Below, piece after piece: positions 14,689-42,543 of a stretch of DNA of 48,788 nucleotides; the stretch's first letter is position 1, and the number at the start of each line of letters is the position of its first letter. The notes beneath the pieces are model-generated. The model saw nothing but the letters and a program-made list of their open reading frames with translations. It was not told the DNA's origin and did no database searches. Source of the stretch: Candidatus Micrarchaeota archaeon (GTDB lineage Archaea; Micrarchaeota; Micrarchaeia; Micrarchaeales; CABMGC01); the NCBI GenBank assembly GCA_046536675.1, contig JAWDMK010000003.1:1-48788 (forward strand). Direction: 5' to 3'. A program made the translations under genes and the position numbers.

Positions 14689-16605
14689 ATGGCGAATGCT
14701 GAAGAGGAATATAATGCATCAAAGATAGTGGTATTAGAAGGCGTGCAAGGAGTTCGAAAAAGGCCAGCAATGTATATAGGTTCTACAGGTTCAAGCGGGG
14801 TTTTACATTTGCTTTTTGAGCTTATAGACAACGCGGTTGATGAAGCAATGGCTGGCTACTGTAAGAACATTACAGTGCACCTTATGCAAGATGAAACGGG
14901 CGATATAGCTGAAGTGATAGACGATGGTAGGGGCATACCTATTGATATTATTCCAAAGTATAACAAAAGTGCACTAGAGGTGGTAATGACATCGCTCCAC
15001 TCTGGCGCAAAGTTTTCAAACGAGGTTTACAAAACAGCAGGCGGATTACATGGCGTTGGACTTACTGTAGTAAATGCACTCTCTGAATTTGTAGAAGTTA
15101 GAATAAGAAGGAGCGGCAAAGAGTATATGCAAACTTTTAGCAGGGGCGTTCCCACCTCAGAGCTTAAAGAGATAGGTCCTGCGACAAATACGGGCACAGC
15201 GATAAAATTTAAGCCAGATAAGGAGATTTTCCCGTCGCCAACCTTCGATTCTACAGCACTTAAAGAAAGACTTAAATACACGAGTTTTCTTAATCCTGGG
15301 CTAAGAATCTTCTTCATAGATGATAGATTTGGCACGCACGAAGAAGAAACCTATTATTCAGAGAATGGATTGTTAGACTTCTTGAAAGAACTAAACAAAG
15401 GAATAACTACAATAACAAGTCCAATATATTTCAAAAAAACCGTTGAGCAGAATATAATGGAGTTTGCAATGCAATACAACAACAGCTATGATGAAAAACT
15501 AGAATCTTTTGTAAATAGCGTAAAAACAGAAGAAGGAGGAACTCACGTAATAGGCTTTAGGGCAGCGTTGACAAGGGCGATAACAAATTATATAGAAAAG
15601 AACAAAATGCTGAACGGAAAAAAAGAGATTAAGATAAACGGTGACGATGTAAGGGAAGGTCTTACTGCGATAGTAAGCATAAGAATACCAAACCCTGAAT
15701 TTGAGGGCCAGACAAAAGAAAAGCTCGGCAATACTAAGATAAAAAGTATCGTAGAGACAGCATTCTATTCGCTTTTTTCTCAATACCTTGAAGAGCACCC
15801 TATCGATGCGCGGGCAATAGCAGAGAAGGCAATAAATGCGGCTGTAGCTAGGGAGAGTGCAAGAAAAGCTAGGGAGCTTGTTAGAAAGAAGAGTATATTT
15901 GATGGCTCTGTACTCCCGGGCAAGCTTGCCGATTGTATAAGTGCAGATCCAGAGAAGAGTGAGATCTTCATAGTTGAGGGTGAAAGTGCAGGTGGTTCAA
16001 GCAAACAAGGCAGAGACAAGATGACACAGGCGGTATTACCTTTAAGAGGAAAGATTCTTAATGTTGAAAAAGCGACAGATGAAAAAATATTTGAAAATGC
16101 AGAACTTCATGCAATGGTTGCCGCTTTTGGCACCGGAATAAAAGACACATTCAATGTTGAAAATATAAGGTATAAAAAGATAATAATAATGACTGATGCG
16201 GATGTAGATGGCAGTCATATAAGAACGTTGCTTCTGACCTTCTTTTACAGATATCTAAGAAAGATTATAGAATTGGGTTATGTCTATATAGCACAGCCTC
16301 CTCTTTATAAGGTATCAAAAGGAAAGGAGGTTTATTATTGCTATTCGGATGCTGAACTTAATGAAAAGCTAAAAGAATTGGGAAGTGATGCAAATGTGCA
16401 AAGATACAAAGGTCTCGGAGAGATGAATCCGGAGCAGCTCTGGGAGACAACAATGAATCCTGAGAAGAGAATGCTTAAAAAGGTATATATAGCAGACGCA
16501 GAGAGGGCAGATAAGCTCTTTTCAATATTGATGGGGATGGACGTAAGTGAGAGAAGAAAATTCTTAGAAGAGCATGCGAGTGAGGTTGCATTCCTAGATG
16601 TGTAA
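14689..16605 (+). CDS. gyrB: DNA gyrase subunit B
   Basis: VRKRPAMYIG, ELIDNAVDE, DDGRGIP, GGLHGVG, VEGESAGG, PLRGKILN, DADVDG, QRYKGLGEMNPEQLW. Confidence 0.97.
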   Translation: MANAEEEYNASKIVVLEGVQGVRKRPAMYIGSTGSSGVLHLLFELIDNAVDEAMAGYCKNITVHLMQDETGDIAEVIDDGRGIPIDIIPKYNKSALEVVMTSLHSGAKFSNEVYKTAGGLHGVGLTVVNALSEFVEVRIRRSGKEYMQTFSRGVPTSELKEIGPATNTGTAIKFKPDKEIFPSPTFDSTALKERLKYTSFLNPGLRIFFIDDRFGTHEEETYYSENGLLDFLKELNKGITTITSPIYFKKTVEQNIMEFAMQYNNSYDEKLESFVNSVKTEEGGTHVIGFRAALTRAITNYIEKNKMLNGKKEIKINGDDVREGLTAIVSIRIPNPEFEGQTKEKLGNTKIKSIVETAFYSLFSQYLEEHPIDARAIAEKAINAAVARESARKARELVRKKSIFDGSVLPGKLADCISADPEKSEIFIVEGESAGGSSKQGRDKMTQAVLPLRGKILNVEKATDEKIFENAELHAMVAAFGTGIKDTFNVENIRYKKIIIMTDADVDGSHIRTLLLTFFYRYLRKIIELGYVYIAQPPLYKVSKGKEVYYCYSDAELNEKLKELGSDANVQRYKGLGEMNPEQLWETTMNPEKRMLKKVYIADAERADKLFSILMGMDVSERRKFLEEHASEVAFLDV

Positions 16606-39524: not shown

Positions 39525-39656
39525 ATGGCTTATGTATGTTTGCAGTGTGGAAGGCAGATAAAAGATATTAAAAACTTTGTTAGGTGCCCTTACTGTGGCT
39601 ATAGAGTAGTTGCAAAAGAAAGGTCCTCTCTTGCAAGGGAGGTATCAACAGATTGA
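39525..39656 (+). CDS. rpoP: RNA polymerase subunit P (Rpo12); not in the ORF track
   Basis: Hand translation MAYVCLQCGRQIKDIKNFVRCPYCGYRVVAKERSSLAREVSTD; Zn ribbon, GAGGTGA SD, canonical operon position. Confidence 0.93.
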   Translation: MAYVCLQCGRQIKDIKNFVRCPYCGYRVVAKERSSLAREVSTD

Positions 39657-39657
39657 A

Positions 39658-39891
39658 TCACTTCTCACTTACAATTATACTCTCCGCAACATTCTTTACT
39701 CTCTTATAAAGTATACTATTCTTAGAGAGCGCCTCCCTTACATTACTGCTTCTTGCGAGTTGTTCGAGCTTAGTGGTAAGCAGATGAGAAACTTGCCCAT
39801 TTTCTATATCAAGCACTATCTCTTTAACATCTCCAAGTATCTTACCTCCTGATGTTATAATCTTTTTTCCATATATCTCTGATAGCATCAT
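39658..39891 (-). CDS. PRC-barrel domain protein (CdpB-like)
   Basis: LSEIYGKKIITSGGKILGDVKEIVLDIENG...VKNVAESIIV. Confidence 0.87.
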   Translation of the reverse strand: MMLSEIYGKKIITSGGKILGDVKEIVLDIENGQVSHLLTTKLEQLARSSNVREALSKNSILYKRVKNVAESIIVSEK

Positions 39892-39895
39892 AAAA

Positions 39896-40420
39896 TCACT
39901 TTTCTATCTTTATTCTCATAAGTTTTTTGGAAGCAAAAATTCTTATTATATACTCATTGAGCTCATTTATAAAAGCTTCCTCATTTTTCTCCCTCTCCCT
40001 GCTTTCCTCAGCGCTAAACAAGTCAAGATGTTCATCTACAATCTTTTTGAGGTATTCTTTTGTCAAGGAATAAAAACCCTGGCCGCAGGAAGTGCATACA
40101 TAAATCGGTACAACAGGCACGTTGCTCATTTTTCTCGTATCTACAAGATCAAGTTCTCTTCTTATACTCTTTTTCCCACACCTTTGGCAAACAGCATTTA
40201 TCTCTACTTCTTTGTATTCAGACTCAACGATTTTAAGGGGACCAACATAATATTCAAGACCTTCCTCTACACTCTTTCCCTTTAGAAGCTTTTGATCTAA
40301 TACCTCGCCACTTTCATTAAAAAAAGTTATAAGCGAGCCATCTTTTAGTTCGTCAGCAACAGCAAATTTGCCATCTCTGCTTGCTGTTCTTATCTTCCCG
40401 TTAGCACTTTTATAAGCCAA
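39896..40420 (-). CDS. Hypothetical protein with Cys4 zinc ribbon
   Basis: CQRCG...YVCTSCG; TTG start. Confidence 0.75.
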   Translation of the reverse strand: MAYKSANGKIRTASRDGKFAVADELKDGSLITFFNESGEVLDQKLLKGKSVEEGLEYYVGPLKIVESEYKEVEINAVCQRCGKKSIRRELDLVDTRKMSNVPVVPIYVCTSCGQGFYSLTKEYLKKIVDEHLDLFSAEESREREKNEEAFINELNEYIIRIFASKKLMRIKIEK

Positions 40421-40441
40421 TAGTGCTTCTATCTAAATCAC

Positions 40442-40651
40442 CTAAGCATGCTTAAGTATATACTCATTTATCTCTTCTTTTGTTATCCTATCTTTTTTCT
40501 TCTCCTTAGCTTTCCTTACAGCAAAGCTTGAGATTTCACGGGCCTTCTTTTCAAGCAATTTAGCAATAGCATCTGCGCCGTCATCTGTAATATTGGCGTT
40601 TGTGTATTTTTTAACAAGTTTTTTTATATTCTCCCTAGAGAGCTGTGCCAT
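40442..40651 (-). CDS. Archaeal histone, divergent (69 aa)
   Basis: Aligns by eye over the full HMf fold: L----I-KLVK...ITDD-A-AIAKLLE--AREI---AV--A......I--EEI. Confidence 0.85.
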   Translation of the reverse strand: MAQLSRENIKKLVKKYTNANITDDGADAIAKLLEKKAREISSFAVRKAKEKKKDRITKEEINEYILKHA

Positions 40652-40655
40652 GAAA

Positions 40656-40700
40656 TCAGCACTCAAGATCCTCATCATTTATCAGAAAAGATCTCATCAC
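40656..40700 (-). ncRNA. Box C/D guide sRNA, predicted target C34 of tRNA-Leu(CAA)
   Basis: GTGATGA (C) - GATCTTTT - CTGA (D') - TAA - ATGATGA (C') - GGATCTTGAGTG - CTGA (D). All four boxes match consensus; D guide is complementary to ACUCAAGAUCC. Confidence 0.85.
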
Positions 40701-40878
40701 AATATTAATATTGCTGTATAGTTTAATAAGTTTTCTTTCAAGCATGGTGTTATGCTGCCTATAAAGTAAAGAAGATAAAAATATATCTAGAACGGGCTTA
40801 TGGCTAATTTCTTCCGATTTGGCTAAAGAACATTTAAATATTTTATTTAGAAAATATAATTGCTGCTTTTGTGATGTG

Positions 40879-41205
40879 ATGGTAGTGGAGGAGATTGACA
40901 AAACAAGATTTGAGGAAGAAGTGTTAAAATCTGACAAGCCAGTGTTAGTTGATTTTTGGGCAGAGTGGTGTGGCCCATGCAGGATATTCTCTCCTATTGT
41001 CGAGAAGTTATCTGAGGAGGAAAAGTATAAAGGCAGGGTGAAGTTTTACAAACTTAATACAGATGAGAACCCAGAGATAGCCGTTGAATATAATATAATG
41101 AGCATACCAACGGCGGCTTTATTTGAAGGTGGGGAAGTAAAAGCTATTTCTATAGGTGCTATACCGCAAGAGGTTTTTAAGAAATGGCTTGATGAAAATC
41201 TCTAG
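40879..41205 (+). CDS. trxA: Thioredoxin
   Basis: VLVDFWAEWCGPC, SIPT; ATG 40879. Confidence 0.95.
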   Translation: MVVEEIDKTRFEEEVLKSDKPVLVDFWAEWCGPCRIFSPIVEKLSEEEKYKGRVKFYKLNTDENPEIAVEYNIMSIPTAALFEGGEVKAISIGAIPQEVFKKWLDENL

Positions 41206-41265
41206 TGCATCATTGCAATAGAATAAATATCTTATCTGGCAAATAATTTTGATATTTGTGGTTAA

Positions 41266-42543
41266 ATGGTAGAACCTTCGCTCCCTAGGGGCATGCGTGA
41301 CTTCAACACAGCGGAAGCTATAGCAAGGCGCGAGGTATTGGCTGTAGTAGAAGAGACATTTAAAAGATTTGGCTTTTCGCCTATAGAGACACCAGCTCTT
41401 GAAAATCTGAATGTACTTTATGCTAAAACTTATGGTGAGGAATCAGGAAAGGAGATCTTTAAAATAGAAGGAGAAGATGCAGCACTTAGATATGATTTCA
41501 CAGTGCCACTAGCAAGGTTTATCGCAATGAACAAGGACACGCCGCTTCCGTTTAAGCGCTACCAGATAGGTTCTATATGGCGAAAAGACGAACCACAAAG
41601 GATGCGATACAGAGAATTTCTGCAGGTAGATATAGACATTGTTGGAAGCAGCGAACTAATCTCTGATGCAGAGGTGATTGCGGTTGCTGCACAAATCCTA
41701 GACGAGCTCGGCATTTCGGGATATAAAATATTGATAAACGACAGAATAATACTGAATGGAATACTATCATTTTTTGGCATTCCAAACGAAAAGAGCCTAC
41801 AAGCAATAAGGCTCATAGATAAGCTTCCTAAGATAGGTAATGAGGAGGTAATAAAAGGACTTGTTGGGCTTGGTATTAAGCAAGAGAACGCAACAAGCTT
41901 AATCGAATTTATTATAAAAGAAGAAGGTAACGATGAGAAGCTCAACAGGATAGAAGCTAATATAGGTCTAAAAGAGGAGGTAAACAAGCTTAGAGAGCTC
42001 ATTAGGCTTGTTAGGCTATACAAAGCTAAAGGCGATCTAATTGTTGATCTTTCGCTTGCAAGGGGTTTTGATTACTATACAAGTTTGGTATGGGAATTCA
42101 TTGTATATGATGAGAACGGAAAGAGGCTTCCTTCAATAGCTGGTGGTGGCAGGTATGACAACCTTATAGGCATATTCTTAAACCAGCAGATACCAGCCAC
42201 AGGCATATCTATAGGCATAGATAGGATAATGAATGTGATAGGCTCAAGCACAGAGAGGAAAAGCTATGCAAGGGTTTATGTTGCCACTGTGGGCAATGTG
42301 CTAGATTATTCGCTCTATGTGGCTAATGCCCTTAGGGGTGCAGGCATAAATACAGATATTAACATGACAAAGAGAAATATTGCAAAGCAGCTTGAGTATG
42401 CTAATGCTATGAGGTTTAGGTATGTTGCTATTGTAGGCGAGCGCGAGCAGTCTAGCAATAAGCTTAAGCTAAGGGACATGGTATCGGGAAACGAAGAGCT
42501 TTTAGACATAGACGAAGCAATTAAGGTTATAAAGGGTGAGTAG
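41266..42543 (+). CDS. hisS: Histidine--tRNA ligase
   Basis: PRGMRDF, LRYDFTVP, RYREF-Q-D-D, LARGFDYYT, GGGRYD, anticodon-binding domain. Confidence 0.97.
   Translation: MVEPSLPRGMRDFNTAEAIARREVLAVVEETFKRFGFSPIETPALENLNVLYAKTYGEESGKEIFKIEGEDAALRYDFTVPLARFIAMNKDTPLPFKRYQIGSIWRKDEPQRMRYREFLQVDIDIVGSSELISDAEVIAVAAQILDELGISGYKILINDRIILNGILSFFGIPNEKSLQAIRLIDKLPKIGNEEVIKGLVGLGIKQENATSLIEFIIKEEGNDEKLNRIEANIGLKEEVNKLRELIRLVRLYKAKGDLIVDLSLARGFDYYTSLVWEFIVYDENGKRLPSIAGGGRYDNLIGIFLNQQIPATGISIGIDRIMNVIGSSTERKSYARVYVATVGNVLDYSLYVANALRGAGINTDINMTKRNIAKQLEYANAMRFRYVAIVGEREQSSNKLKLRDMVSGNEELLDIDEAIKVIKGE

Follow-up and report, generated by a model that had tools for sequence, protein, structure and literature searches.

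The element described in this report is a box C/D guide small RNA (sRNA) lying immediately upstream of a histone-fold gene in a Candidatus Micrarchaeota archaeon, and several described systems resemble one part of it or another. The nearest in function is sR47 of Pyrococcus abyssi; in vitro, its complex with L7Ae, Nop5 and fibrillarin places a methyl group on C34 in a tRNA-Leu(CAA) transcript (PMC5558902). Four Pyrococcus sRNAs are described for position 34, their substrates being two leucine tRNAs (anticodons CAA and UAA) as well as the tRNAs for Met and Trp, and in the case of pre-tRNA-Trp methylation takes place before splicing (PMC7994747). Box C/D sRNAs that overlap or adjoin the 5' ends of open reading frames (ORFs) have been described as rare (7 % of genes) and the overlapping guides as mostly orphans, with 2 of 17 category 1 guides having predicted targets (Lui et al. 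2018, PMC6009581; Tripp et al. 2017, cited after PMC7994747). In Sulfolobus acidocaldarius, a kink-turn (k-turn)-forming element is present in the 5' leader of l7ae, next to the translation start, and L7Ae lowers translation there (PMC5539422). In Nanoarchaeum equitans, a 5' tRNA-His half serves as the 5' untranslated region (UTR) of the valyl-tRNA synthetase gene, and tRNA-sRNA dicistrons also occur (PMC3491384). The window considered here, i.e. the whole stretch of 48,788 nt that was analysed, comprises positions 1-48,788 of contig JAWDMK010000003.1 in assembly GCA_046536675.1, a genome of 707 kb labelled G000 below. On its minus strand, the window carries a guide of the sR47 type that is predicted to act on the wobble base of tRNA-Leu(CAA) and that, across a whole archaeal order, directly precedes a conserved histone-fold operon.

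The sRNA occupies 45 nt (40700-40656), and its C, D', C' and D boxes are all exact, with box D ending 4 nt before the histone ATG; each of these elements reads on the minus strand as an initial, sequence-only reading of the window had described it. A strict C-D'-C'-D regular expression finds two sites in the 707-kb genome and none in each of 20 shuffled versions of it, and the genome-wide top match of RF00095, the generic archaeal C/D model of Rfam, is exactly this locus (29.1 bits, per-genome E 1.4e-4). The genome encodes fibrillarin (269 bits), Nop5 (191 bits) and L7Ae (97.6 bits), all above their Pfam cut-offs, so the two proteins that the sequence-only reading presupposed, fibrillarin and Nop5, are present and L7Ae with them. 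By motif, boxes C and D are able to form a k-turn. The element is a genuine archaeal box C/D guide RNA, although only one of its two sides seems to be in use. While the D spacer is 12 nt long in all loci, the D' spacer measures 8 nt here and 8-12 nt in relatives, and no stable-RNA target was found for it; the D' spacer is probably not a working guide and the D' side vestigial. Among related loci the C' and D' boxes are conserved apart from a few variants, among them CCGA, TGAAGA and TGAGGA, and the linker between them is 3-7 nt in family f1 and 8-11 nt, with a GC..GC hairpin-like form, in family f3. An internal hairpin joining the D' spacer to the D guide was also considered and dropped, since its minimum free energy of -9.4 kcal/mol corresponds to z = -0.96 and 36 of 200 shuffled sequences fold equally well.

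The predicted substrate is encoded in the same genome. A genome search for the complement of the guide leads to a tRNA-Leu(CAA) gene at C4:26121-26218 with the anticodon arm GUAGA-CUCAAGA-UCUAC, a gene for which ARAGORN makes no call in this genome because of an insertion of approximately 12 nt in the T-loop. Counting from box D, guide positions 2-11 form 10 Watson-Crick pairs with A31-C40, the fifth guide base (N+5) lies opposite C34, and the base adjoining box D faces G30 unpaired. The sequence-only reading had matched the guide to nucleotides 31-41 of tRNA-Leu(CAA), and the gene at C4 bears this out for A31-C40 and for the placement of N+5 on C34; the C41 that it expected is U41 in the tRNA, so that the eleventh pair is G.U. 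Only two non-self sites in the genome reach 10 contiguous Watson-Crick pairs with N+5 paired, namely this tRNA and a coding-region site at C3:33953, and tRNA-Leu(UAA) at C1 would also be able to pair, position 34 then being G.U. The D guide is predicted to direct, in concert with L7Ae, Nop5 and fibrillarin, 2'-O-methylation of C34 in tRNA-Leu(CAA), in line with what the earlier reading stated of sR47. The tRNA-Leu(UAA) gene, at C1:~15498-15600, has an insertion in its D-loop and was likewise missed by ARAGORN; this insertion and the T-loop insertion of tRNA-Leu(CAA) are probably non-canonical introns.

Conservation of the guide was assessed with the motif TGATGA-NNN-TCTTGAG-NN-CTGA, allowing at most one mismatch, in 41 genomes of the genus, family and order, G000 included. 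(The genome G038, flagged as unpublished, is part of these counts, and both G038 and G211, likewise flagged, are part of a sample of 301 genomes used for the phylum.) The motif occurs in 38 of the 41 genomes and its reversed control in none (0/41); it was not matched in G018 (88 % complete), G025 (82 %) and G040 (93 %). Box C, which lies outside the search pattern, is present in 38/38 loci. Five guide positions were free to vary in the search, and the three of them that pair with the tRNA (with nt 40, 39 and 31) are invariant in 38/38 loci, while the two that fall outside the 10-bp duplex vary, their commonest bases reaching fractions of 0.42 and 0.82. In 37 of the 38 loci all ten pairing bases are invariant, even as their unpaired neighbours drift, and the tRNA side, GACUCAAGAUC, is the same in all 37 tRNA-Leu(CAA) genes recovered from the 41 genomes. 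The outer two guide bases do not covary with tRNA nt 41 and nt 30, being paired in some genomes and not in others, which agrees with a duplex of only 10 bp. In the phylum-wide sample, 209 of the 301 Micrarchaeota genomes have the motif and 0 have the control. Since related genomes are not independent, all such counts overstate the number of evolutionary events. In sum, the boxes, the guide and the adjacency to the histone gene that the sequence-only reading expected to persist in relatives do so, the last of these in 39/41 genomes.

Further evidence that pairing matters comes from genera with variant guides. Their tRNA-Leu(CAA) genes were recovered by BLAST with the tRNA gene, a loose tRNA pattern having been set aside in these distant genera as it gave mostly chance matches, and three of the genes have an intron directly after G37. 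In all three genera the guide pairs across the exon-intron junction (marked by a stroke) and at 10/10 positions with its own pre-tRNA: for G176, with guide TATCTTGAGT and junction ACUCAAG/AUA, as against 9 with the spliced tRNA (a result also checked by script); for G233, with guide AATCTTGAGT and junction ACUCAAG/AUU, again as against 9; and for G101, with guide TGCCTTGAGT and junction ACUCAAG/GCA, as against 7. The guide of G097 fits precursor and mature tRNA alike (nine Watson-Crick pairs and one G.U), and from G100 no tRNA-Leu(CAA) was recovered by the same BLAST search. Changes that compensate each other on guide and pre-tRNA mean that the guide is under selection for pairing, and a guide that spans the junction means that methylation must precede splicing in these three genera. 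These three guides therefore resemble, in acting on a precursor, the guide within the tRNA-Trp intron; Haloferax sR-tMet is another guide RNA that acts on an intron-containing pre-tRNA. In contrast, the anticodon loop of tRNA-Leu(CAA) in the genome of the window is intron-free, so that precursor and mature tRNA match its guide equally. A different sort of change is seen in G025, the only genome of family f2, where the histone-linked sRNA (L070, G025:C14) has a guide with a one-base variant, GATCTTAAGT; this change is predicted to turn the guide toward U34 of tRNA-Leu(UAA) instead of C34 of tRNA-Leu(CAA).

The guide type itself reaches far beyond the Micrarchaeota. An exact-motif scan of species-representative genomes matched at least 120 stretches, 80 of which were listed, and among the matches listed the C'-guide-D motif is present in Nitrosopumilaceae, Thermoplasmata, Thermococcus, Desulfurococcaceae, Archaeoglobaceae, Heimdallarchaeota, Nanopusillaceae and others. 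On account of this spread over the listed archaeal lineages, the guide type is pan-archaeal and old; the seven bacterial records among the 80 are probably due to chance. Also among the matches listed, each archaeal lineage keeps a conserved D' guide of its own, such as CCTATCCCT in Nitrosopumilaceae, ACGAACCCTT in Thermoplasmata and CCTCGGCAG in Thermococcus, and the Nitrosopumilaceae form has a 6-bp terminal stem as well. Both the lineage-specific D' guide and the terminal stem are lost in the histone-linked form. A search of the Thermococcus homologues against Rfam gave no named family, the single match being a weak one to sR3.

What sets the micrarchaeal sRNA apart is its place in the genome (Table 1). 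The sequence-only reading had called the gene behind box D a histone, and its product does exceed the PF00808 cut-off. The 69-aa protein scores 26.5 bits against the NCBIfam model archaea_histone, below the cut-off of 50, and its closest solved chains are HMfA (1hta, E 4.5e-4) and HMfB, at E 4.5e-4 to 3.3e-3. It is one of three histone-fold paralogues in the genome, as judged by PF00808 matches, and is divergent, not canonical; the canonical, HMf-like paralogue is on C7 and has the box TTTATATA 18 nt before its ATG, a leaderless-type layout. In related loci, a 62-78-aa ORF begins 1-21 nt past box D in 36 of 38 cases (4 nt in 16 and 5 nt in 4), and in 24 of these 36 box D is 1-5 nt from the start codon. 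Matches to PF00808 at E<=0.01 are given by 33 of the 36 ORFs, and the other three match the protein of the window at E<=1.5e-13. The two remaining loci, in G023 (L006) and G026 (L033), have a histone reading frame after box D according to a hidden Markov model (E 7e-34 and 1e-29) and have no canonical start (ATG, GTG or TTG) after box D. In G026, the sole in-frame starts lie inside the sRNA, as a TTG in the guide and the ATG of box C'. The layout in these two genomes may reflect an uncut transcript that is translated in G026, or else an assembly error. As a general start, the ATG of box C' was tried and rejected: in the window it opens an in-frame ORF of 78 aa, but the frame is kept in only 20 of the 36 loci because spacers vary, and the histone alignment begins at MAQLS. 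G026 may be an exception in this respect.

Table 1. Coordinates of the sRNA, its promoter elements and the operon that follows, in window positions
Feature	Positions	Strand	Description
Purine-rich stretch GAAAGAAAAC	40739-40730	minus	Abuts the TATA box upstream; by position, possibly similar to a transcription factor B recognition element (BRE-like)
TATA box TTATTAAA	40729-40722	minus	22-29 nt 5' of the first base of box C
Box C, GTGATGA	40700-40694	minus	Read from sequence; RTGATGA in 38/38 related loci
D' spacer GATCTTTT	40693-40686	minus	8 nt; sequence and length (8-12 nt) variable in relatives
Box D', CTGA	40685-40682	minus	Of 38 related loci, 36 have CTGA and 2 have CCGA
D'-C' linker, TAA	40681-40679	minus	3 nt; kink-loop (k-loop) type
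Box C', ATGATGA	40678-40672	minus	
D guide GGATCTTGAGTG	40671-40660	minus	12 nt; pairs with tRNA-Leu(CAA) A31-C40 through positions 2-11, counted from box D
Box D, CTGA	40659-40656	minus	
Spacer TTTC, box D to ATG	40655-40652	minus	4 nt; too short for a Shine-Dalgarno (SD) sequence
Histone-fold gene	40651-40442	minus	69 aa; PF00808, 28.3 bits against a cut-off of 21.4
Zinc (Zn)-ribbon gene	40420-39896	minus	174 aa; two CxxC pairs; second gene of the operon
PRC-barrel gene	39891-39658	minus	77 aa; PF05239, E 6.6e-8; third gene of the operon

The arrangement also takes in the genes downstream. When they were counted in 33 loci (the window itself and four short loci, L066-L069, being left out), the Zn-ribbon gene was found directly after the histone gene, on the same strand, in 33/33 and the PRC-barrel gene downstream, also on the same strand, in 32/33. 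For the 174-aa Zn-ribbon protein, searches gave no Pfam family and nothing convincing in NCBIfam or Atlas. The arrangement of sRNA and histone gene is present in 39 of the 41 genomes of the order (the 38 motif loci, including that of G000, plus G025), a distribution that spans three families and approximately 30 genera; in the other two genomes, G018 and G040, neither the sRNA nor the histone paralogue was found. Outside the order the sRNA is a stand-alone gene: in families f4 and f9, none of the 31 sRNA sites (30 loci) has the arrangement. Among the matches listed from the exact-motif scan, the arrangement occurs in 12 of 17 Micrarchaeota loci, three of the records concerned being titled Micrarchaeaceae or Micrarchaeales, and is absent from the other 5 Micrarchaeota loci as well as from 56 non-Micrarchaeota archaeal and 7 bacterial loci. 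With the protein of the window as query, no orthologue of the histone paralogue was found in five genomes of families f4, f7 and f9, outside the order; in three of these five genomes the PF00808 model finds canonical histones.

The position of the promoter bears on how sRNA and operon are expressed. The sequence-only reading had pointed to a single TATA-like box at about 40722-40729, and the element at 40729-40722 is the single conserved TATA element upstream of box C: in 38 loci lined up by their box C, A and T make up a fraction of 0.79-1.00 over -30..-23, with 1.00 reached at -28, and there is a second A/T-rich patch at -11..-6. Archaeal box A elements lie approximately 26-27 nt before the start site (PMC3491384). 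From the TATA distance, transcription should begin at the first base of box C or within 1-2 nt of it, here at a G after T. No A/T-rich element between box C and the ATG is conserved among relatives, and in family f3 the D'-C' linker is GC-rich. In the genome of the window, a GGTG-type word stands at -12..-9 of approximately 30 % of well-defined gene starts (88/289, as against 41/289 for a control window), but the histone gene has no SD sequence, as the earlier reading also had it, because its 4-nt spacer cannot hold one. Among relatives, 12 loci have spacers of at least 8 nt and 5 of these contain a strict SD-type word (GGTG, GGAG, GAGG or AGGT).

Going by promoter geometry, the simplest reading is that the sRNA and the operon are co-transcribed, and we regard it as likely that the sR47-type guide is the 5' end of the operon transcript, so that one TATA promoter is shared and one transcript serves as both sRNA and mRNA. 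Under this interpretation, the TATA promoter would initiate at about the first base of box C and the primary transcript would read through the 45-nt sRNA into the histone-fold/Zn-ribbon/PRC-barrel operon, leaving the sRNA gene of this order without a separate transcription unit. The sRNA part would be protected by the proteins assembled on its boxes, giving a guide ribonucleoprotein (RNP), and the downstream part would be the mRNA. Such a route is consistent with reports that internal boxes suffice for maturation and that the assembled RNP protects the sRNA body while exposed flanks are trimmed (PMC7994747). With box D 1-5 nt from the AUG in most genomes, a given molecule should not be able to carry an assembled small ribonucleoprotein (sRNP) and a ribosome engaged in initiation at the same time, unless the RNA is cut after box D. 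Such a cut would leave a near-leaderless mRNA; alternatively, only unassembled transcripts might be translated.

Several observations weigh against this interpretation of the locus, whether as a working guide or as a leader. The D' spacer is just 8 nt and boxes C and D have no flanking terminal stem, and as archaeal sRNPs normally have spacers of approximately 12 nt on both sides, the RNP geometry may be unusual. At 29.1 bits, the RF00095 match does not reach the model's gathering score of 45; Pyrococcus sRNAs, whose spacers are longer and whose flanks are G+C-rich, were the basis of that model, and in a control set of 14 named genomes, including 4 archaea, it gave no match above the cut-off either. 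In the guide of one relative, G014, the base facing C34 is a T. In the genome of the window, an A/T-rich sequence, TAAATGAT, occupies -30..-23 relative to the histone ATG; relatives do not conserve it, but an internal promoter is possible for this genome alone. Finally, a search identified four metatranscriptome runs that hold 7-13 % of sampled words, and the RNA contigs that map to 39600-41400 (at least 90 % likeness) cover 40284-40579 and neighbouring genes, with none over 40580-40940; the contigs are uninformative on the sRNA, its start site and the habitat.

Some of these points would be accounted for if the guide had decayed and the element were now just a structured k-turn leader or a fossil that no longer directs methylation. 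The degenerate D' side, the Rfam score under gathering and the mismatch of G014 at N+5 might all be taken that way, but ten pairing bases that stay constant in 37/38 loci while their unpaired neighbours drift would be hard to explain in a fossil, as would guides that track intron sequence in other families and the fact that G025 carries exactly the one change that retargets to tRNA-Leu(UAA). All three core proteins are, moreover, retained in a 0.7-Mb genome. Decay is thus highly improbable. A more serious concern is whether there are two transcripts, i.e. an sRNA made from the upstream TATA box and ending near box D, and an operon mRNA with a leaderless start at about the ATG, made from a promoter embedded within the sRNA gene. 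The D'-linker-C' region does read TAAATGAT at the appropriate distance in this genome, and the canonical histone, with TTTATATA before its ATG, shows that a leaderless-type layout is used there. In all relatives, however, the positions at -30..-23 from the ATG are the C' box and guide, and the region is mostly not A/T-rich, as seen in TTGGTGAT of genus g1 and in the GC-rich linkers of family f3; because spacer lengths vary, there is also no fixed distance from TATA box to ATG. We consider an embedded promoter improbable, and the likely reading remains that of one shared promoter and one transcript.

If there is one transcript, the question arises as to whether its two functions are coupled. 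The sequence-only reading had proposed that the assembly of L7Ae, Nop5 and fibrillarin, or excision of the sRNA, controls histone translation and links tRNA modification to the supply of chromatin protein, and this is plausible. More specifically, L7Ae and then Nop5-fibrillarin might bind the k-turn 4 nt from the AUG and repress the histone-fold operon, such that output would track free sRNP proteins or sRNA excision and the coupling would be kept by selection. The distance from box D to the start codon, 1-5 nt in 24/36 loci, is near enough for steric occlusion, and the arrangement has been retained over three families and approximately 30 genera. There are precedents, too: as the earlier reading noted, L7Ae represses through a 5'-UTR k-turn, in this instance next to an SD sequence in S. 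acidocaldarius and also in an Escherichia coli reporter (PMC5539422), Lui et al. (2018) considered that sRNAs at mRNA 5' ends might act likewise (PMC6009581), and an sRNA overlapping a 5' end lowered expression of a downstream reporter (PMC7994747). However, two genes that share a promoter and have no spacer can hardly separate, and conservation may for that reason be inertia rather than selection. Spacers range from 1 to 21 nt and are not fixed, and where they are 8 nt or longer and hold a strict SD-type word, as in 5 of 12 such loci, the lineages concerned may initiate conventionally. The gene that would be controlled is a divergent paralogue, one of three, while the canonical histone on C7 has its own leaderless-type promoter. 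In addition, none of the genome's three C/D candidates is free-standing, the others riding on neighbouring genes, and promoter sharing may therefore simply be a compact genome's way to express sRNAs. On this balance, a coupling maintained by selection is possible but doubtful. Going further, the guide RNP might be a built-in 5' module that both shields the mRNA from 5'-end decay and gates initiation 4 nt downstream, with operon output set by the free pool of sRNP proteins as a read-out of ribosome-biogenesis load; in a bolder variant, the histone-fold, Zn-ribbon and PRC-barrel proteins would themselves work with the sRNP or with tRNA. We think this rather unlikely, but the bolder variant, if true, would explain why this operon alone carries a guide.

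The other two C/D candidates in the genome, and some tRNA introns, are recorded here as observations in their own right. A second perfect C/D sRNA, with guides GACGAGGTATTT and AAAGAGAGTCGT, is at C20:9102-9150 (-), 29 nt downstream of tRNA-Gln(UUG), and the two probably make up a tRNA-sRNA dicistron. No convincing target for it was found in the assembly; a search of the assembly for the 16S 3' end also found nothing, and the rRNA genes may accordingly be unassembled. In family f4 and in G035, words related to the C20 guides turn up as the D' guides of the Leu(CAA) sRNA. The weaker candidate (22.2 bits), at C2:48162-48217 (+), stops 10 nt short of the ATG that opens a membrane-protein ORF of approximately 495 aa, with which its C' box is in frame. 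The tRNA-Trp gene at C1:4011-4148 contains a 63-nt intron in which C/D-like boxes, GCGATGA ... TTGA ... GTGATAG, can be read by eye; the stretch before TTGA would set N+5 on C34, like the known guides of tRNA-Trp introns. A type II tRNA at C24:8863-8989, with anticodon UGA and called Ala by ARAGORN, has a 40-nt intron with TCAAGAG-CTGA-TTA-GTGATGC, and the stretch before CTGA pairs with the anticodon loop such that N+5 would be U34, though it could equally be a splicing helix. At C7:18239-18360, what ARAGORN calls Ser(CGA) reads as an elongator tRNA-Met(CAU) whose 48-nt intron contains GTGATGA; for Nanoarchaeum, a C/D RNA within a tRNA-Met intron has been reported (PMC3491384).

Set beside the systems outlined at the start, the micrarchaeal sRNA is familiar in its parts and new in their combination. 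With sR47 it shares the target nucleotide and the logic, i.e. a D guide antisense to the anticodon loop that places N+5 on C34, and this correspondence is a functional one; the C'-NNN-TCTTGAG-NN-D motif is also present in Thermococcus records. It differs from sR47 in having a variable D' spacer, of 8 nt here, in having no terminal stem, and in that its gene is fused to an mRNA. The sRNAs of Tripp et al. (2017) and of category 1 in Lui et al. (2018) are likewise on the sense strand, upstream of or overlapping the start codon, with co-transcription presumed and usually one working guide, and it was for them that a reporter showed a cost to the downstream gene and that interference of L7Ae with initiation was already raised; here, by contrast, there is a clear and conserved target, a promoter set for a start at box C, and one operon that is kept order-wide. 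As in the l7ae leader of S. acidocaldarius, a k-turn-forming element is placed by a translation start, but that element is a simple k-turn which masks an SD sequence, whereas here it is a complete guide RNA, with a k-turn predicted by motif, and there is no SD sequence. The likeness to N. equitans lies in a reduced DPANN genome in which a stable small RNA from the transcript of a neighbouring gene defines that gene's leader; the class of RNA and the partner gene differ, and a single species is concerned there as against an order here. Within the full-text literature searched, no description of the sRNA-histone arrangement in Micrarchaeota was found. While the guide and its target are textbook, the order-wide fusion of a known guide type to a histone-fold operon is new.

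Across this DPANN order, then, a clearly targeted and probably functional guide is the likely obligatory 5' leader of one operon, and the locus offers a conserved natural example for asking how an mRNA is translated once a C/D sRNP has formed on its leader. It also indicates that the modification machinery of a 0.7-Mb genome, in which C/D guides are very few, is retained at least partly for methylation of the tRNA wobble base, and that in the sister families, whose guide reads the precursor with its intron, methylation and splicing have a fixed order.

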